From a virus (Duplodnaviria > Heunggongvirae > Uroviricota > Caudoviricetes), in the IMG/VR virus record IMGVR_UViG_2563366854_000001, positions 1-22,290 of that record: a stretch of DNA of 22,290 nucleotides; one strand, given 5' to 3'. Shown here one piece after another: positions 1 through 14,756 of this stretch; position 1 is the first letter of the stretch; each line of letters begins with the position of its first letter. Both the position numbers and the translations under genes were made by a program. Under the pieces are notes generated by a model that was given only the letters and a program-made list of their open reading frames with translations, was not told the origin of the DNA and ran no database searches.

Positions 1-1164
1 TTACGCCTTCTTTATATCCTCCATAATTCCACAGTGGGACATATTTGGGACATTATCACCAAAAATGTCGTCTATTTTCCTTGCATGCTCTGTCAAATGA
101 TTAGGCGCAAGGTGAGCATACCTACGAACCATTTCTATGGACTCCCATCCGCCCATTTCCTGAAGCACAGATAATGGGACGCCTGACTGGATCAGCCAGC
201 TTGCCCAGGTGTGTCTGAGGTCATGGAAACGGAAATCTTCAATTCCTGCACGACGACAAGCTGATAGCCATGATGTCTTGCTGTCGATGCGCATCTTCCT
301 GACCGCAGGCGTTGATGTTCCATCTGCTCGCTTAGCCGCCTTGGTATGTACAAACACCCATTTGTGATGCTTGCCTATTTGATCACGCAACACTTTACAG
401 GCGGTATCGTTCAGCGCCACACCAATGGCGCGGTTTGATTTGCTCTCTTCTGGATTCACCCAGGCAACTCGTCGCTGCATGTCGATTTGTTGCCATTCCA
501 GATTTATGATGTTCGACTTTCTCAGACCAGTTGCCAGCGCAAACTTGACGACAGATTTCAGTGGTTCGGGGCACTCATCAATAAGGCGTTTTGCTTCCTC
601 CTTTTCCAGCCATCTGACTCGCTTGTTTCTGACCGCTGGTATCTTGATGACAGGCGCTTTTTCCAGCCACTTCCAGTCGCGTTCTGCAGCACGGAGAATG
701 GCCTTTATCATGGCAAGATGCTTTGCCTTTGTCTGAGTTGATACTGGCTTTGGTTCATAAACAGGCGGTTCTTTACCTTTCCTGATGGCGGCCTGAACTT
801 TCTGTTTCCATATTTCTTTCGTCTTTCTGTTATGCATTCTGCTTACAGCAGAGTAAATCTTTGCCTCCGAGATATCTTTAAGCCTTATACCCTCAAAATG
901 TTCAAGCCAGAACTCAATCCGGCTTTTATCTGAATCGAGAGATTTTTTATCAGCTTTTTCCTCAAGCCATCTTAGGCAGGCCTCTTCAAAAGTGACATCA
1001 GGTAAATCCCCTAGCTTTTCTACTCGCCAGAGTTCTGCTTTTCGCTTGTCGTGCAACTCCTGAGCTTGCCGCTTGTCCTTTGTGCCAAGAGATTCCTTAA
1101 TTCGTTTCCCGCCCGGGAGCGAATACGAGGCATACCATATTTCATTTCTGCGGAAGAGTGACAT
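1..1164 (-). CDS. int: Phage integrase, tyrosine recombinase family
   Basis: 387-aa ORF; C-terminal region carries the tyrosine-recombinase pattern (HDLRHTWAS...LGGW...RRYAH); start ATG at 1162-1164 preceded by AGGAAAG; sits at the prophage end next to an Xis-like gene. Confidence 0.9.
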
Positions 1165-6700: not shown

Positions 6701-7462
6701 CTAAAGCCGGTTGTATTTAATTGATTCGTGTATCAATGCTTTGCCCATAACATAAAGTTGATCTTGGGACTTCTCATCAATGTACCATTTCTCATAGGCT
6801 GGATTATCCGAAAGAACGGCGAGTTTGTTGCCTTGCATTTGTAGACGTTTAACGTGGAACGTCTTACCATAAACGAAAGAGTAAACACCATCAGTTTGGA
6901 AGTTGCGAACAGAAATGTCGACAAACAGTCGATCTCCGGAAACTAGAGTAGGGGACATGCTGTCGCCATTTACAGTCATAACTTTAATATCATCTTGAGA
7001 ACGATTACCGAAAAGAGAACGGGCATGCTCTGTTGTGAACTCAATGGCGTAGAGCACATCAACATAGTCTGAAAGCATATAGGTTCCAGGTCCTGCGCTA
7101 ACGCTAAGATCCAAAACTTCTATCCTGTATACATCGGGTTTTGTTGGATTGGGGATGCTTGCCATTTCCTTACATCCTTCTCTCTCGCCAACACCATATT
7201 CTAAATATGAAGCTGATACCCCCAGAGCCAATGCAAGTTTATTCATGACAGAGGCACGAGGCTTCGCAGCGCCGATTGTGTATCGCCGCGCCATTTCATA
7301 TGTAACGCCCACAAGACTTTTGAGTTGGGTGACAGAAATTCCCTTGTTTGTCATTAGCTCGTTTAGTCTCTTGGCGAAATCTGGATACTTCTGTTCTTCT
7401 ACCATAGGTAGAAGGTTACTCGCATCACATACGCTAGTCATTTCTATTTTAAGTAGTTGCAT
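6701..7462 (-). CDS. cI-like prophage repressor (XRE-type HTH plus S24 LexA-like peptidase domain)
   Basis: HTH LMTNKGISVTQLKSLVGVTYEMARRY; Ala-Gly cleavage-site-like SAGPG; S24 motifs VNGDSMSPTL and KRL. Start is ambiguous (7462, 7441 or 7405) with no strong SD, so it may be leaderless. Confidence 0.85.
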   Translation of the reverse strand: MQLLKIEMTSVCDASNLLPMVEEQKYPDFAKRLNELMTNKGISVTQLKSLVGVTYEMARRYTIGAAKPRASVMNKLALALGVSASYLEYGVGEREGCKEMASIPNPTKPDVYRIEVLDLSVSAGPGTYMLSDYVDVLYAIEFTTEHARSLFGNRSQDDIKVMTVNGDSMSPTLVSGDRLFVDISVRNFQTDGVYSFVYGKTFHVKRLQMQGNKLAVLSDNPAYEKWYIDEKSQDQLYVMGKALIHESIKYNRL

Positions 7463-7511: not shown

Positions 7512-7775
7512 ATGTCATCTCAAAACTACACAGAGAAAGCAGTAAAAGCTGCGGGAAAATCTTTATCTGAAGTAGCCCGTCACTTTGGTTTTAAGTCCAC
7601 TCAATCCGTCGCTAATTGGGTAATTAACAATCAAGTCCCGTCAGAACGGGTTTTACAACTTTGTGAGTTGGGAAACTGGTCCGTGACCCCTCATGAACTG
7701 CGTCCTGATATTTACCCCAATCCAAATGATGGATTACCTGAGTGCTATTCAAAAGTTAGCGGTTCAGCTGCGTAA
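7512..7775 (+). CDS. Cro/YdaS-like HTH regulator
   Basis: 87-aa ORF with GGAGAAAGG upstream; divergent from cI across the operators; C-terminal ELRPDIY resembles the YdaS family (memory-based). Confidence 0.7.
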   Translation: MSSQNYTEKAVKAAGKSLSEVARHFGFKSTQSVANWVINNQVPSERVLQLCELGNWSVTPHELRPDIYPNPNDGLPECYSKVSGSAA

Positions 7776-7803
7776 ACGTAACCACAGAAACGAGGAGTTA
7801 ACC

Positions 7804-8355
7804 GTGGGTAAGCATCACTGGAAAATAGAAAAACAGCCTGAGTGGTACGTGAAAGCTGTCAGAAAAACTATCGCAGCGTTGCCGGGGGGTTACGCTGAAG
7901 CTGCTGACTGGCTGGACGTAACAGAGAACGCATTATTTAACCGCCTTCGTGCCGATGGCGATCAGATTTTCCCGCTGGGATGGGCAATGGTTTTACAGCG
8001 TGCTGGTGGCACTCACTTCATTGCTGATGCTGTGGCGCAGTCTGCAAATGGCGTATTTGTGTCTCTTCCTGACGTCGAGGATGTGGACAACGCCGATATT
8101 AACCAGCGTCTGCTGGAAGTCATTGAACAGATCGGCAGTTATTCAAAACAGATTCGTTCAGCAATCGAAGACGGTGTAGTGGAACCGCATGAGAAGACAG
8201 CAATTAACGACGAGCTGTATCTCTCAATTTCGAAGCTGCAGGAGCATGCAGCACTGGTCTACAAAATCTTTTGCATTTCAGAAAGTAATGACGCCCGCGA
8301 GTGTGCAGCTCCGGGCGCCGTGGCGTGTCGTGACTGTGGAGAAACTAACGCATGA
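7804..8355 (+). CDS. YdaT-like protein (putative CII-type regulator)
   Basis: Start placed at GTG 7804-7806, 7 nt after GAGGAG and just after the cro stop; the ATG-initiated 7693 ORF would overlap cro by 80 nt. Assignment is by position and size. Confidence 0.5.
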
Positions 8356-8707
8356 ACAGTTTAACAACACACTACCGTCGCTCGCAACTGATTGCGCTTC
8401 CTGTACCGGGTGGAAAAGCGAAGGTGGAATATTGCTATGCAGTGAATGTACCAGGTGACAGGGAAATTGTAACCCACAGCTTTGCTGAGTGGGCTGTGGG
8501 TGATTTCAACCGGCAGAAGGAGACAGTCCTTTGCGACAAGTTAACCGCTGGTTCAAAGATCACTACGGAGTGCCCGTCAGAGTCATTCGTTGGGAACCGG
8601 AAACACAACGTGTTATCTACCTCCGCGAAGGCTATGAGCATGAGTGCTTCAGCCCGCTCGAACAGTTTCGTCGTAAATTCAGGGAAATAGAGGTCGGTCA
8701 TGAGCAC
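8352..8707 (+). pseudogene. Small gene with apparent frame discontinuity (frameshifted or mis-sequenced)
   Basis: N-terminal part is in the frame starting at ATG 8352 (ATGA-coupled to the upstream stop); the protein-like C-terminal part ([49 protein letters not shown]) is in another frame from about 8504 and ends at 8707, overlapping the O-like start. The frame-0 tail after about 8530 is Ser-rich junk. Confidence 0.45.
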
Positions 8708-9641
8708 TAAATTAACCGGCTATGTATGGGATGGTTGCGCTGCATCAGGCATGAAATTATCCAGCGTGGCAATTATGGCCCGCCTGGCTGATTTCAGTAA
8801 TGACGAAGGTGTGTGCTGGCCATCAATTGAAACCATTGCCCGCCAGATTGGCGCGGGGATGAGTACCGTCAGAACGGCTATCGCACGGCTGGAAGCAGAA
8901 GGCTGGTTAACGCGTAGGGCGCGTCGCCAGGGTAACCGCAATGCGTCGAATGTTTATCAGCTTAACGTTGCGAAGCTTCAGGCAGCGGCATTTTCTCAAC
9001 TGTCAGATTCTGACCCGTCAAAATCTGACGCATCAAAATCTGACCCGTCAAAATTTGATGCGTCGAAATCTGGCAAAAAAGCGGGTTTTCACCCGTCAGA
9101 ATCTGGTGGGGATCCGTCAGTAAAATCAAAACATGATCCGTCAGATAAAAAAACTTCTCGTCCGGACGCTTCGCAACCGGACACGCAGACGGCTGAACAG
9201 GATTTTTTAACTCGCCATCCTGATGCGGTTGTATTCAGCCCTAAAAAGCGCCAGTGGGGGACGCAGGATGATTTGACCTGCGCACAGTGGCTCTGGAAAA
9301 AAATCATCGCCCTGTACGAGCATGCCGCCGAATGTGACGGCGAGGTGGTTCGTCCCAAAGAACCGAACTGGATAGCCTGGGCAAACGAAATTCGCCTGAT
9401 GTGTGTGCAGGATGGTCGTACTCATAAACAAATCTGCGAGATGTACAGCCGCGTCAGTCGCGATCCGTTCTGGTGCCGTAACGTGCTCAGCCCGTCGAAG
9501 CTGCGGGAAAAATGGGATGAGCTTTCCCTGCGCTTATCGCCGTCCGTCAGCACGTACACCGAAAAACGCGAAGACCCGTACTTCAAAGCCAGTTACGACA
9601 ACGTGGACTACAGCCAGATCCCGGCAGGATTCAGGGGGTGA
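8700..9641 (+). CDS. Replication initiator, lambda O-like
   Basis: 313 aa; N-terminal HTH-like region; internal low-complexity linker encoded by tandem DNA repeats (iterons), as in lambda O; GAGG 6 nt upstream of ATG. Confidence 0.75.
   Translation: MSTKLTGYVWDGCAASGMKLSSVAIMARLADFSNDEGVCWPSIETIARQIGAGMSTVRTAIARLEAEGWLTRRARRQGNRNASNVYQLNVAKLQAAAFSQLSDSDPSKSDASKSDPSKFDASKSGKKAGFHPSESGGDPSVKSKHDPSDKKTSRPDASQPDTQTAEQDFLTRHPDAVVFSPKKRQWGTQDDLTCAQWLWKKIIALYEHAAECDGEVVRPKEPNWIAWANEIRLMCVQDGRTHKQICEMYSRVSRDPFWCRNVLSPSKLREKWDELSLRLSPSVSTYTEKREDPYFKASYDNVDYSQIPAGFRG
9000..9150. repeat. Iteron array: candidate phage origin of replication inside the O-like gene
   Basis: At least five tandem units of about 15 bp (consensus near CCGTCAAAATCTGAC) at 9001-9074, further degenerate copies to about 9145, followed by an A-rich tract (GATAAAAAAA). 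Confidence 0.6.
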
Positions 9642-9643
9642 TC

Positions 9644-10132
9644 ATGAGTCTTTTGAATGACGTTCAGAAATTCATTGAAGCCCATCCGGGGTGTACTTCC
9701 GGAGACATTGCGGATGCTTTTGCAGGTTACTCACGACAGCGCGTTCTGCAGTCAGCAAGCAAGTTACGTCAGAGTGGGCGTGTGGCTCACCGTTGTGAAG
9801 GGGATACACGCAGACATTTCCCGCGGCTGACTGAGATACCGCAGGAGCCGGAACCGCAACCAGTTCGTGAATCCAGACCTGTGCGCAATTTCTATGTCGG
9901 CACTAACGATCCCCGGGTGATTTTGTGCCTGACCCGCCAGGCGGAAGAACTGGAGTCCAGGGGCTTATACCGTCGTGCTGCAACGGTGTGGATGGCGGCA
10001 TTCCGTGAAAGCCACTCCCAGCAAGAGCGAAACAATTTTCTTGCGCGTCGTGAGCGGTGTTTACGGAAAAGCAGCAAGCGCGCTGTATCGGGTGAAGAGT
10101 GGTATCTGTCAGGGAATTACGTGGGGGCTTAA
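9644..10132 (+). CDS. Hypothetical protein, possible PerC-like regulator
   Basis: ATG 9644 overlaps the O-like stop (TGATCATGA); segment ESRGLYRRAATVWMAAF resembles the PerC-family motif (from memory, low certainty). Confidence 0.45.
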   Translation: MSLLNDVQKFIEAHPGCTSGDIADAFAGYSRQRVLQSASKLRQSGRVAHRCEGDTRRHFPRLTEIPQEPEPQPVRESRPVRNFYVGTNDPRVILCLTRQAEELESRGLYRRAATVWMAAFRESHSQQERNNFLARRERCLRKSSKRAVSGEEWYLSGNYVGA

Positions 10133-10458
10133 TGACGACGTTAACTCAATGCCAGCAGCAGGTGCTGGATATGCTGATTTCTTACCAGAAAGAACGTGGC
10201 TTCCCGCCAACCAATCAGGAGGTGGCTACCATGCTGGGATACCGTTCAGTGAATGCAGCGGTGGAGCATCTTCGCGCACTGGAGAAAAAAGGCGTCATCA
10301 CGATAAAGCGTGGCGTGGCCCGGGGCATCACGCTTCATACCGCGGTGAAGGACGACGACAGCGAGGTGGCCGGGATTATCCGCGCACTGCTTGCTGGTGA
10401 GGAAAACGCCAGGCTGCGTGCAGCCCACTGGTTACATGAGAGGGGGCTGAAAGTATGA
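10132..10458 (+). CDS. LexA DNA-binding-domain-like protein lacking the S24 peptidase domain
   Basis: MTTLTQCQQQVLDML...GFPPTNQEVATMLGYRSVNAAVEHLRALEKKGVI...RGI aligns by eye with the LexA N-terminal winged HTH (LTARQQEVFDLI...[36 protein letters not shown]); only 108 aa; TAATG coupling with the upstream gene. Confidence 0.75.
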   Translation: MTTLTQCQQQVLDMLISYQKERGFPPTNQEVATMLGYRSVNAAVEHLRALEKKGVITIKRGVARGITLHTAVKDDDSEVAGIIRALLAGEENARLRAAHWLHERGLKV

Positions 10459-10844
10459 AGCTGATTCTGCCTTTTCCACCCAGCGTGAACACCTACTGGC
10501 GACACCCCAACAAAGTGGCATTTGCTGGTAAGAGCCTGATAAGCGCGGCGGGGCGAAAATTCCAGAGTGCGGCGTGCACAGCAATAGTTGAGCAGTTACG
10601 TCGTCTGCCGAAACCAACGTCGGCACCTGCTTCAGTGGAGATCGTGTTGTTTCCTCCGGATAACCGGATCCGCGATCTGGACAACTATAACAAGGCGCTG
10701 TTTGACGCCCTGACCCACGCGGGTGTGTGGGAAGACGACAGCCAGGTGAAAAGAATGCTGGTGGAGTGGGGACCGGTTATCCCGGAAGGGAAGGTCGAGA
10801 TCACTATCAGTAAGTACGAGAAAACGGCGGGTGCAGCCGCCTGA
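10455..10844 (+). CDS. rusA: RusA-family Holliday junction resolvase
   Basis: 129 aa; LPFPPSVNTYWRH and DLDNYNKALFDALT motifs characteristic of RusA; ATGA overlap with the upstream stop. Confidence 0.9.
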   Translation: MKLILPFPPSVNTYWRHPNKVAFAGKSLISAAGRKFQSAACTAIVEQLRRLPKPTSAPASVEIVLFPPDNRIRDLDNYNKALFDALTHAGVWEDDSQVKRMLVEWGPVIPEGKVEITISKYEKTAGAAA

Positions 10845-10863
10845 TCAAGAGGAGAAACGAAGT

Positions 10864-11661
10864 ATGAATAATCTGATGGTCATTGATGGTATTGAAGTTC
10901 GTCGTGATGCTTATGGGCGTTACAGCCTGAACGATCTGCACAGGGCTGCCGGTTCTCTGGATAAGCATAAGCCTGCATTCTGGCTCCGCAATGAGCAAAC
11001 TGAACGTTTAATAAGCGAGTTGCAGATTTGCAACTCGGTCAATATAGAGCCAGTTAACGTTATTCGTGGCGGAAATAACCAGGGGACGTATGTCTGCAAA
11101 GAACTGGTGTATGCCTATGCAATGTGGATCAGCCCGTCATTCCATCTGAAGGTGATCCGTACTTTCGATATGGTAACCAGCGCATCGGAAAAATTATCCG
11201 GGCAGGCTGCTGACAAGATGCAGGCTGGCGTGATTCTGCTGGACTTTATGCGCCGGGAGTTAAACCTGTCTAACTCTTCAGTGCTTGGTGCCTGTCAGAA
11301 ACTCCAGGAGGCTGTTGGCTTACCGAATCTGGCACCGCGCTATGCCATTGATGCTCCTGCTGACGCGCCTGATGGCTCAAGCCGTCCCACGCTGTCACTG
11401 AGTGCACTGCTGAAGCAGTATGGTATCCGCCTGACAGCTAATCAGGCATATCACCAGATGGTGAAGCTGGGGATCGTCGAGCAGCGCGAACGATACAGCC
11501 GTACCGCGATTAACAACATCAAAAAATTCTGGTCGCTGACAGCGAAAGGCTGCATGTTCGGCAAGAACATCACCAGTCCCGCAAATCCGCGCGAGACGCA
11601 GCCGCATTTCTTCGAATCCCGATTCCCTGAGCTGTTAAAGCTGCTCGATACCGTTCATTGA
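10864..11661 (+). CDS. KilA-N domain protein (Bro/antirepressor-like)
   Basis: Start at internal Met MNNLMVIDG (GAGGAGAAACGAAGT-ATG); N-terminal KilA-N-like pattern (YSLNDLHRAAG ... GTYVCKELVYAYAMWISPSFHLKVI). Confidence 0.75.
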   Translation: MNNLMVIDGIEVRRDAYGRYSLNDLHRAAGSLDKHKPAFWLRNEQTERLISELQICNSVNIEPVNVIRGGNNQGTYVCKELVYAYAMWISPSFHLKVIRTFDMVTSASEKLSGQAADKMQAGVILLDFMRRELNLSNSSVLGACQKLQEAVGLPNLAPRYAIDAPADAPDGSSRPTLSLSALLKQYGIRLTANQAYHQMVKLGIVEQRERYSRTAINNIKKFWSLTAKGCMFGKNITSPANPRETQPHFFESRFPELLKLLDTVH

Positions 11662-11662
11662 G

Positions 11663-12658
11663 GTGACCGTGAGAGCACTATTGACCCCTGAAATTGCCCC
11701 GCGTATGGGGATCGTATTGTTCAGGCCCGGTTCAGAGCTGATGCCCCTGTTTATGCAGGGGCGTGTACTGCTGGAGCCTGAGCCGGAGCATTATTCATCT
11801 TTCGCCAGTGGTGCCGTTCCCGCGGCATCACAACCGCTGGCGGATGATCCTGCCGTTCGGGCCGTGTTCCGTAATGAGGCAGTGATTCGTCGTGCTGGTG
11901 GGGTGGAATGTCTTGAAAGCTGGTTACTTCGTGAAAAAGGCTGCCAGTGGCCTCATTCCGACTGGCACAGCGAGAACATGACCACAATGCGACACGCGCC
12001 GGGCGCAATCCGTCTGTGCTGGCACTGCGATAATCAGTTACGTGATCAGTTCACGGAGCGGCTGGAATCAATGGCAACGGATAACTGTGCCCGTTGGGTG
12101 TTGTCTGTAGTCCGTCGGGATCTCGATTTTAATGATAACCATGCCGTGACAATGCCGGAACTGTGCTGGTGGCTGGTTCGTAATGACCTGGCGGATGCCT
12201 TACCGGAAAGCGCAGCCCGTAAGGCACTGAGATTACCGAAGTCTGTTTTGCCGTCTGTCACCCGGGAAAGTGACCTTGTGCCTTCGGTTCCTGCCACCAG
12301 CATTATCCAGGATAAAGCGAAAAAGGTGCTGGCGCTGAAAGTGGATCCGGAGTCGCCGGAGTCTTTTATGTTACGCCCCAAACGTCGTCGCTGGGTTAAT
12401 GAACAGTACACGCGCTGGGTTAAGACGCAGCCGTGTGCATGTTGTGGAAAGCCAGCTGATGATCCGCATCATCTGATAGGCCATGGTCAGGGTGGAATGG
12501 GTACAAAAGCGCATGACCTTTTTGTGCTGCCTTTGTGCAGAAAACACCACGACGAACTGCATGCGGATACCGTGGCATTTGAAGAGAAGTATGGCTCCCA
12601 GCTGGAGCTGATATTTCGTTTTATCGATCGCGCACTGGCGATTGGTGTGCTGGCCTGA
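11663..12658 (+). CDS. HNH-motif phage protein (DUF968-like)
   Basis: C-terminal [21 protein letters not shown]...[10 protein letters not shown] is Cys/His HNH-like; start uncertain (GTG 11663 or downstream ATG 11705). Confidence 0.65.
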
Positions 12659-12675
12659 TTTTGTGGAGAAAGTTA

Positions 12676-13059
12676 ATGCGTGATATTCAGATGGTTCTTG
12701 AACGTTGGGGAGCGTGGGCGGCTAATAATCATGAAGATGTGGCCTGGTCGTCCATTGCCGCCGGTTTTAAGGGATTAATTCCTTCAAAAGTAAAATCTCG
12801 CCCGCATTGTTGTGACGATGACGCGATGATCATTTGCGGGTGCATGGCCCGTCTGAAAAAGAACAACAGCGATTTACACGATTTATTAGTAGATTATTAT
12901 GTATGTGGTATGACATTCATGTCACTGGCAAGTAAGCATTGCTGCTCGGATGGTTATATCGGGAAAAGGTTACAGAAGGCTGAGGGCATAATTGAAGGGA
13001 TGTTAATGGCATTAGATATCCGGTTAGATATGGATATCGTTGCTAATAATTCTAATTGA
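12676..13059 (+). CDS. Q: Late-gene antiterminator Q
   Basis: Start at [22 protein letters not shown] (GGAGA-N7-ATG); Q-family-like sequence with Cys-rich zinc-binding region; sits upstream of a hairpin terminator and the lysis cassette. Confidence 0.8.
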
Positions 13060-13247: not shown

Positions 13248-14330
13248 TTAGAACTGATAAACCAGACCTACAGCGACGATGTCGTCGGTATCAATACCAG
13301 CTGTTTTGGTAAACTTACTATCGTCAATTAAGTTGATTTTGTAATCAACAAAAGTAGACATGTTTTTATTAAAGTAGTAAGTAGCACCGACATCGACATA
13401 CTTGACTAAGTCTCGGTCACCATGAACACCAAGGTCTTTACCTTTTGACTGAAGGTAAGCAACAGATGGGCGCAGACCGAAGTCAAACTGATATTGTGCT
13501 ACTGCTTCAAAGTTTTGTGCTTTGTTTGCAATATGGTTATTACCAAAAACGGTCATATTCTGAGTTTCAGAATATGTGGTAGCCAGATAGATATTGTTCG
13601 CATCATATTTCAGGCCTGCAGCCCATACTTCCGCATTTTTGCCGGAGGCATTGAATTTGCTCTTACCATAGGCGACCTGACCGTCAGTGCGATCTGATTT
13701 AGCATAGGTTGCACCCACGCCGAATCCTTCATACTCATAAGTAGTGGAGAAACCGAAACCATCACCATTGGCTTCAGTTACGTCAGTGCGGTCATTTTTA
13801 CCCTGATACTGAGCAGCAAAGTTCAGGCCATCGACCAGACCAAAGAAGTCGTTGTTACGATAAGTTGCAACACCAGTAGTGCGACCAGTCATGAACACAT
13901 CTGTTTGGGTCCAGGTATCACCACCGAATTCTGGCAGAACGTCAGTCCACGCACCGATGTCGTATGCTACACCGTAGTTACGGCCGTAATCGATGGAGCC
14001 GTAATCACCAAATTTCAGGCCTGCAAATGCAAGACGGGTTTTGTCTTTGGAAGAACCTTGAGATTCAGCACGGTTGCCTTTGAATTCATATTCCCACTGA
14101 CCGAAACCAGTCAGTTGATCGTTGATTTGGGTTTCACCTTTGAAGCCAAGACGGGCATAAGTAGTATCACCATCATCTGCATCATTAGAGGAGAAGTAGT
14201 GCTTGGCATTAACTTTCCCGTATAGATCCAGCTTGTTACTGTCTTTATTATAAATTTCAGCTGCCTGAGCAGACATCGCCATCAGTACTGATGCAGCTAC
14301 AGCAGAAATTGCCACTGTTAATTTTTTCAT
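13248..14330 (-). CDS. nmpC: Outer-membrane general porin, OmpC/NmpC family (lysogenic-conversion moron)
   Basis: Start at internal Met [23 protein letters not shown] (signal peptide); porin hallmarks AEIYNKD...LDLYGKV and C-terminal GLVYQF; lies between Q and the holin, as nmpC does in DLP12-type prophages. Confidence 0.85.
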
Positions 14331-14756
14331 TGTACGCCCTTTTTTTGAACTATTATTAAAAAATGATGTCACTGCGCGATAAATATTCATCTAATCAATG
14401 TGATTATTTCAAGATGTAAGTTTTAGTTTCTCATTTAATTTGTGAAGTAGATCTCTATTTTTATCTGAACCTTTTCTATCTAATCCTATTCATGGCTCTT
14501 GTCTGAACAAAAATAAATCTATTAGCTAATTTATATTAATGGCACTTATTTATAAGTGCTCTATAATTCTTTAGCTTAATTTAAACAAACTAAAAATAAC
14601 ATCGGAAATTATTAACTGATTATTTGTTGAAGTTTTCTTATGTATTTGTGGTGGTGTTTTGAACACTCGGTGGCATTCTCACAAATATCATTTAGTAGTT
14701 TACGTACGTAAAAAATTGGTTATGCTGTTAAGAGTGGTTACTTCGTCACACAGCTT

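Follow-up and report, generated by a model that had tools for sequence, protein, structure and literature searches.

A phage protein that consists of the DNA-binding domain (DBD) of LexA, with the rest of the repressor missing, has a precedent in GIL01, a tectivirus of Bacillus thuringiensis. The 66-amino-acid (aa) GIL01 protein gp6, a 'truncated LexA homologue', binds the palindrome GaCACAn nTGTGaC at the -35 element of the late promoter P3 and activates P3, the same promoter that host LexA represses together with gp7 (PMC6182141). gp6 is the only characterized phage protein of this kind that we found in the literature and is the closest analogue of the gene described here, a LexA-DBD-only gene in a 22,290-nucleotide (nt) stretch of viral DNA (IMG/VR record IMGVR_UViG_2563366854_000001; the whole stretch is called the window below). 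Judged by its gene content, which includes integrase, cI-like, cro-like, cII-like, O-like, Q and lysis genes, the window is a lambdoid prophage; an earlier note made from the sequence had likewise spoken of a prophage. Comparison of gp6 with the window protein by hhalign finds winged-helix homology (probability 96.7%, 32% identity over 63 residues), whereas BLASTP yields no pairwise alignment between the two. gp6 further differs in having no counterpart of the 39-aa tail of the window protein, in its recognition helix (VSHKTAHRYL with the critical K38, versus RSVNAAVEHL) and in its derivation from a Gram-positive LexA, and the window phage uses Q antitermination for its late genes.

Two further points of comparison come from Escherichia coli. 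LexA contacts DNA through Ser39, Asn41, Ala42, Glu44 and Glu45 and dimerizes through its C-terminal domain (PMC3091678). After cleavage, the free LexA N-terminal domain (NTD) binds DNA 10-1000-fold more weakly, yet ClpXP has to degrade it for full derepression (PMC11442139). This fragment resembles the phage protein in being DBD-only, with weak operator binding that delays derepression unless the fragment is removed (PMC11442139). It is transient, however, and is degraded by ClpXP via a degron that cleavage exposes, whereas the phage protein is a dedicated product with a C-terminal module.

Thousands of genomes already carry an annotation of the window gene with its domain content, and gp6 shows that phage regulators with only the LexA DBD are not new. 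What sequence comparison suggests to be the family's own features are a conserved C-terminal hairpin and the family-wide loss of Glu44. We propose, with confidence about evenly divided for and against, that the protein is a RecA-insensitive, LexA-derived, sequence-specific regulator that is expressed with the early replication and nin genes, pairs through its hairpin and recognizes a CTGT-like half-site with altered specificity or affinity.

The LexA-type domain and its C-terminal tail

The gene starts with the ATG at 10132 and ends with the TGA at 10456-10458. An in-frame GTG at 10099 falls within the upstream gene, and homologues begin MTTLT. The 108-aa product, MTTLTQCQQQVLDMLISYQKERGFPPTNQEVATMLGYRSVNAAVEHLRALEKKGVITIKRGVARGITLHTAVKDDDSEVAGIIRALLAGEENARLRAAHWLHERGLKV, is identical to RefSeq WP_000210176.1, annotated as 'LexA family transcriptional regulator'. 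It matches the LexA DNA-binding domain family PF01726 over the full profile (positions 1-65 of 65, E=2.9e-19, 69 bits against a cutoff of 23.7), and LexA accounts for every one of the best matches when solved structures are searched by sequence. Its E. coli DBD (residues 1-84; 1lea, E=8e-16) aligns without a gap, residues 2-69 on 2-69; within the first 70 residues, the phage and E. coli proteins agree at 35 (50%). An open reading frame (ORF) of this kind is far beyond chance.

An AlphaFold2 (AF2) model, computed as a monomer with 34 family sequences as input (mean predicted local distance difference test score, pLDDT, 82), contains the expected winged helix-turn-helix (HTH). Its helices span residues 6-22, 28-35 and 40-52, the last being the recognition helix (RSVNAAVEHL), and the two strands of the wing are at 56-58 and 66-68. 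Foldseek fits residues 1-68 of the model to DNA-bound LexA (3jso) with a root-mean-square deviation of 0.9 A; identity over this stretch is 50%. The LexA N-terminal winged HTH that the earlier note had recognized by eye is therefore borne out by the full PF01726 profile, the alignment to 1lea and the fit to 3jso. All 108 residues also match PHROG 362, a phage 'transcriptional repressor' family (E=7e-58, profile positions 1-106 of 106). A search with PADLOC assigned the protein to no defense system and returned a marginal winged-helix match to a CARF model only (E=3.6e-4).

The second half of LexA is absent, again as the note had stated. No match to the S24 family PF00717 was found in the protein, whose chain ends at residue 108, and the lexA equivalog model TIGR00498 is matched over positions 1-91 of 203 only, with 67.4 bits against a cutoff of 110.95. 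The S24 domain of LexA with its Ser119/Lys156 dyad, which also supplies the dimer interface, is thus missing, and with it RecA-stimulated autocleavage and the LexA-type dimer. The phage protein is also unlike E. coli LexA in being phage-borne and, presumably, expressed from a lytic operon. We considered whether it might instead be the immunity repressor of the prophage and rejected this, since a separate S24-type cI-like gene stands beside cro.

Where LexA has its S24 domain, the AF2 model places an acidic linker of low pLDDT followed by a two-helix hairpin (residues 75-103, helices 75-88 and 93-103). This tail is kept in Escherichia, Cronobacter, Salmonella, Klebsiella, Enterobacter, Atlantibacter and Kosakonia with 40-50% identity across genera. 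The hairpin is amphipathic, A97 is invariant, A93 and L101 are nearly so, and the hairpin consensus is EAVxLLRALLAGExxARERAIxFLxxxG. Tail helix 1 (IIRALLAGEE, residues 81-90, 10372-10401) aligns with the hinge and cleavage-site segment of LexA, VGRVAAGEP (Ala84-Gly85). With the lexA model match extending to position 91 and the alignment with E. coli LexA running on into the hinge, the tail may descend from the LexA linker, though the AG dipeptide of helix 1 is not kept across the family.

Because LexA dimerizes through its C-terminal domain, a LexA domain without S24 needs another way to pair. The databases suggest two solutions. One is tandem duplication, seen in proteins with two PF01726 domains each (P0129, P0130, P0146, P0150, P0152 and P0153), and the other may be the hairpin of the present family, which we infer to dimerize, perhaps as a four-helix bundle. 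P0153 is in addition fused to a PTPS domain.

The earlier note had also raised mixed dimers with LexA. On this account the protein would pair with host LexA, or join it at one half-site, and so alter repression or cleavage; what speaks for it is the DNA-binding fold that the two share and the alignment of tail helix 1 with the LexA hinge. The interface through which LexA dimerizes is, however, the very domain that the phage protein lacks, which leaves mixed dimers without a structural basis. Nothing in the tail is S24-like, and the AG dipeptide varies across the family. We regard the account as very improbable, and this part of the note is not supported.

An exhaustive HMMER search and a profile search gathered the family, whose members with both winged helix and hairpin occur in prophages of Escherichia, Shigella, Citrobacter, Salmonella, Cronobacter, Klebsiella, Raoultella, Enterobacter, Atlantibacter, Kosakonia and Hafnia. 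They are 40-65% identical to the window protein, and all belong to PHROG 362. Among 5426 complete E. coli genomes, 2233 (about 40%) carry the gene, at 2855 places, 12 of them on plasmids. It is carried by 51 deposited phage genomes, among them SfV (orf42, 'unknown'), SfII, SfIV, mEp460 and Stx2a, Stx2c and Stx2k phages. Deposits also name it 'LexA DNA binding domain protein' or 'LexA-like protein', and a catalogue lists it as pham 237 ('LexA family transcriptional regulator, pfam01726') in 15 Stx phages (PMC8136144).

All 80 related IMG/VR contigs carry an intact copy, and 50 distinct nucleotide sequences among them encode 14 distinct proteins. The ratio of nonsynonymous to synonymous polymorphism (pN/pS) across these contigs is 0.05 for the whole gene; the winged helix has 0.01 and the tail 0.12. 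The gene is thus real and under strong purifying selection. A resemblance to the front half of LexA and occasional frameshifted copies (P0030, P0112 and P0118) could be taken to mean that a LexA or cI-type repressor gene was truncated and is now decaying without function. We rejected this reading, which is hardly credible given the low pN/pS, the intact copies, the cross-genus conservation of the tail and the number of E. coli genomes that carry the gene.

Recognition-helix residues across the family

In the alignment with LexA by which the earlier note proposed to confirm the DNA-contacting residues, S39, N41, A42 and E45 are kept and E44 is replaced by V, so that four of the five contacts stand and one does not. 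The wing residues Arg64-Gly65 are kept as well. To place the substitution, we compared 129 tail-bearing family representatives with 79 full-length LexAs from diverse Gamma- and Betaproteobacteria, a control set that came from a genome-contig scan aimed at diverse family loci, which returned almost only true lexA genes. E44 is present in all 79 LexAs and in none of the 129 family representatives. Position 45 is E or D in every LexA and E, D, L, T or N in the family, where S39 and N41 are invariant. Position 40, V in the window protein, is P, A, V or S in true LexAs and is therefore uninformative.

These comparisons bear on an alternative in which the protein mimics LexA outright. It would bind canonical SOS boxes (CTGT-N8-ACAG), resist cleavage under activated RecA and re-repress the host SOS regulon after prophage induction, together with the LexA-controlled genes of competing prophages or colicin plasmids. 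The 50% identity to the LexA NTD and the conservation of S39, N41, A42, E45, R64 and G65 favor such a mimic; the change P40V, found in true LexAs as well, is compatible with it; and the residual operator binding of the free LexA NTD, which must be removed by ClpXP for full SOS (PMC11442139), also speaks for it. The complete absence of E44 stands against it, as does the variation of positions 44-45 by subfamily (V-E, T-D, N-D, L-L, A-E and F-E).

The family contains about 10 helix types, for example RSVNAAVEHL, ASPNAATDML, RSPNAANDHL, SSSNAVLLHL, SSPNAAAEHL and SSANGAFEHI. The SOS box is the same throughout the Enterobacteriaceae. That the helix varies while the box does not argues that LexA specificity does not constrain the whole family, and the loss of E44 points to a re-tuned regulator and not to a copy of LexA. 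gp6, the sole characterized analogue, likewise binds a site of its own. We consider the mimic unlikely, if still deserving of serious thought.

Neutralization of acidic residues in LexA itself (E45K, E71K) leads to higher DNA affinity (bioRxiv 10.1101/2020.07.07.191791). As an alternative to relaxed specificity, and by analogy, the lost acidic side chain could raise affinity and in this way compensate for a weaker dimer; for the E. coli type the data fit either reading. With a different dimerization module, the geometry of the dimer may differ and the spacing of half-sites need not be 16 bp, a further point against the LexA mimic.

The prophage block and relatives behind SOS boxes

The gene lies within a mosaic block of the prophage that has almost no intergenic DNA, and the PerC-like, LexA-DBD, RusA, KilA-N and DUF968 genes are chained throughout (Table 1). 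At the upstream junction (GGGGGCTTAATGACG) its ATG overlaps the TAA of the PerC-like gene, and at the downstream junction (AAAGTATGAAG) its TGA overlaps the ATG of rusA, with GTATGAAG holding both the rusA ATG (10455-10457) and the LexA-DBD TGA. The gene is accordingly directly upstream of rusA, as the note had described, and the same 4-nt overlap with rusA occurs in the Cronobacter and Salmonella relatives. Such an overlap is typical of the tight packing of this block and shows no functional link.

Table 1. Features of the window, with two loci from related prophages (numbered on their own contigs) at the end.
Feature	Coordinates	Strand	Basis or remark
LexA-DBD-plus-tail gene	10132..10458	+	108 codons, 108-aa product, stop included; ORF and sequence
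LexA-type winged HTH, residues 1-69	10132..10338	+	AF2 model, Foldseek to 3jso, gap-free LexA alignment
Tail, residues 70-108	10339..10455	+	AF2 secondary structure, cross-genus conservation
TAATG overlap	10130..10134	+	PerC-like stop shares one base with LexA-DBD ATG; sequence
ATGA overlap	10455..10458	+	rusA start overlaps LexA-DBD stop; sequence
Mosaic block	7750..12600	+	cII-like, ORF 8352-8690, DUF4222, O-like, PerC-like, LexA-DBD, RusA, KilA-N, DUF968
Integrase	1-1164	-	Listed in window
ParA/MinD-type ATPase, 358 aa	5454-6530	-	AAA_31 E=2e-29; adjoins cI-like repressor
cI-like repressor	6701..7462	-	HTH_3 PF01381 E=2e-5; Peptidase_S24 PF00717 E=1.5e-16
cro-like and cII-like genes			Listed in window
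Conserved unannotated ORF	8352-8690		Inside mosaic block
O-like replication gene	8700-9641		Listed in window
YfdN-like PerC-family gene, 164 aa	9638..10132	+	PF06069 E=9.2e-10; PHROG 1324 E=5e-78; RefSeq annotation in L001
RusA Holliday-junction resolvase	10455..10844	+	PF05866 E=8.5e-15; PHROG 34 E=3.5e-57
KilA-N protein, DUF968	downstream of rusA		Within mosaic block
Q	12661-13059		Listed in window
Porin moron, 380-aa ORF	13248-14390	-	Between Q and lysis genes; matches L001 annotation at same place
Lysis genes, terminase	after porin moron		Listed in window
Klebsiella locus L002	5385-6393		SOS box, dinI homologue, 85-aa PHROG-1813 gene, LexA-DBD gene
Enterobacter locus L008	5560-6408		SOS box, 82-aa PHROG-1813 gene, LexA-DBD gene, 67-aa ORF, RusA, DUF968, Q

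Of the 80 related IMG/VR loci, 59-80 cover any given part of the block, while 6 cover the immunity region and 5-10 the Q region; the gene has thus been inherited within the block at about 7750-12600. A simple scan found no promoter-like or terminator-like site on the plus strand between 7512 and 12346, so we read the gene as part of the early rightward (replication/nin) transcript. Across the family it occupies a conserved slot, (PerC-like)-(Dam)-LexA_DBD-(small ORF)-RusA-(KilA-N or Ant-like)-DUF968-Q, with start/stop overlaps throughout.

This linkage to RusA and DUF968, conserved across genera, could mean that the winged helix and hairpin form a protein-binding adaptor that serves a neighboring function, such as replication or the action of RusA or the DUF968 nuclease; that no target site has been found agrees with such a role. 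The most conserved part of the protein, however, is its recognition helix and wing, with the lowest pN/pS and the invariant S39 and N41, and the linkage resembles ordinary nin-region packing and does not extend to RusA in the Klebsiella type. We thus deem an adaptor improbable.

Several neighbors merit mention in their own right. The PerC-like protein is of two parts, with a MarR-like winged-helix N-terminus (PHROG 1687) and a PerC/ANR-like C-terminus (PF06069; NF033650 below its cutoff), and is a putative second regulator translationally chained to the LexA-DBD gene. Iteron-like inverted repeats at 9002-9064 (GTCAGATTCTGAC / GTCAAAATCTGAC / TGACGCATCAAAATCTGAC), within the O-like gene, are probably the phage origin; their motif recurs in the Salmonella locus L007 (2262-2289). 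The ParA/MinD-type ATPase has no ParB nearby and a weak PADLOC match to PDC-M28B, and recalls the orphan ParA-like protein STM14_3218 of the Gifsy-1 immunity region (PMC9879122).

Relatives in Klebsiella, Raoultella and Enterobacter are longer (130-135 aa, with an N-terminal extension) and belong to a different transcription unit; the 130-aa Klebsiella protein also matches PHROG 362. Their genes stand in the order SOS box, (dinI), PHROG-1813, LexA_DBD, PHROG-1212, (RusA), DUF968, Q, with RusA missing from the Klebsiella type. The SOS boxes of both types are obvious by eye. In Klebsiella a near-consensus box (TACTGTTTATTTATACAGTA) precedes the dinI homologue by about 40 nt, and among the Klebsiella-type viral contigs (within L172-L251) 72 of 76 have a strong SOS box about 600 nt upstream, in at least 13 sequence variants that all retain CTGT...ACAG. 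The Enterobacter box is ACCTGTACATTCATACAGTA, and the repressor of that prophage is short and has no S24 domain. Upstream of the window's own gene there is no SOS box and no dinI.

These relatives sit in SOS-box-controlled operons, so that a link to SOS may exist. Co-expression with the SOS modulator DinI in the Klebsiella-type loci, and the box in the Enterobacter loci, favor the LexA mimic introduced above, yet the most divergent recognition helix, SSSNAVLLHL, belongs to this very Klebsiella type.

The arrangement is that of the LexA-controlled operon dinI-antirepressor-irsA of Gifsy prophages (PMC3121763). The Klebsiella and Enterobacter LexA-DBD genes follow an SOS box, dinI (Klebsiella only) and a small gene and precede nin/Q, as IrsA does in its slot. 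IrsA is, however, a DUF1367 protein (PF07105) and non-homologous, and the E. coli-type gene of the window lacks the upstream elements altogether. We accordingly rejected the LexA-DBD family as irsA: Gifsy-2 STM1020 is PF07105 (E=4e-98), and its hhalign probability against the family alignment is 0.6%. The PHROG-1813 gene was likewise rejected as a GftA-type antirepressor, with no detectable similarity; PHROG 1813 has no assigned function.

Near-consensus SOS boxes were also seen elsewhere in E. coli-type loci. One (TACTGTTTTTATATACAGTA, L102 at about 2095) lies inside the cI-like repressor gene in 12 loci, and another (TACTGTAAAAATAAACAGTG, L100 at about 9075) extends over the start of the gene for a 350-aa DNA methyltransferase in 15 loci.

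Proposed regulation, target searches and significance

In our proposal, the window protein would be a DNA-binding regulator derived from LexA, stable and beyond inactivation by RecA. Upon cleavage of the prophage's own S24-type repressor, the early rightward promoter would transcribe the gene together with the replication genes, and translation would proceed within the overlapping chain of PerC-like, LexA-DBD and RusA genes. The hairpin would provide the dimer contact that LexA takes from its C-terminal domain. The recognition helix, with S39, N41, A42 and E45 kept and E44 changed to V, would read a CTGT-like half-site with changed specificity or affinity. Like gp6, the protein would thus be a LexA-type regulator that has been re-tuned and does not simply retain the operator specificity of LexA. 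Its target may be an SOS-type operator of variant sequence, located in the host or in a co-resident element, or it may lie within the conserved phage block.

Several observations weigh against this proposal, and most concern the target. The window was scanned with a position weight matrix (PWM) of 16 E. coli SOS boxes, which gives approximate scores, and no SOS box above chance was found. The top score is 15.0, inside the DUF968 gene; shuffled sequence reaches 18. The sole exact CTGT-N8-ACAG in the window, at 6960-6975 (CTGTCGCCATTTACAG), lies inside the cI-like repressor gene. Matches with one mismatch occur 13 times where 6.9 are expected, a count that one of 100 shuffles reaches, and none of them scores like an SOS box.

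A search for inverted repeats in the block at 7700-12700 gave only ori-type iterons and palindromes in coding sequence. Neither the conserved block nor the vicinity of Q contained a candidate operator, and no gp6-like site was found. The block offers no intergenic operator space, and the variable immunity and Q modules make a target in a phage promoter hard to place. The predicted hairpin dimer, for its part, comes from a monomer model, and our literature search found catalogue mentions of the enterobacterial family and no functional study. A perfect 9-bp inverted repeat at 8472-8501, ACCCACAGC-N12-GCTGTGGGT, was noted inside the conserved ORF 8352-8690 and is not kept in the Cronobacter homologue.

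The same variability of immunity and Q modules, together with the lack of linked operator space, would suit a target borne by the host, as the LexA mimic supposes. In its strongest form, this would make the protein an uncleavable LexA surrogate that reoccupies SOS-type operators while activated RecA persists, and the gene a widespread phage-borne SOS brake in about 40% of sequenced E. coli, a possibility that we offer tentatively and think rather doubtful. The surrogate may act after prophage induction in the E. coli type, or upon SOS firing in the Klebsiella and Enterobacter types, in Klebsiella together with DinI. If so, it would shut down the host SOS regulon along with the LexA-controlled antirepressors, colicins and toxins of competitors.

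As an object the gene will not surprise a specialist; it would gain interest if its product proved to be an uncleavable brake on promoters under LexA control, and a widespread one. Prophage induction, Shiga-toxin release, mutagenesis and persistence are all set off by the cleavage of LexA. An uncleavable reader of LexA-type operators could alter the strength or duration of a lysogen's response to DNA damage and to DNA-damaging antibiotics, and it could decide the winner among co-resident prophages. Even a modest effect would be widespread, given the many E. coli genomes with the gene, and would extend to Stx2 and Shigella serotype-converting phages. If the protein instead regulates a phage-specific site, the family would represent a second independent phage capture and re-targeting of the LexA DBD, after GIL01 gp6.

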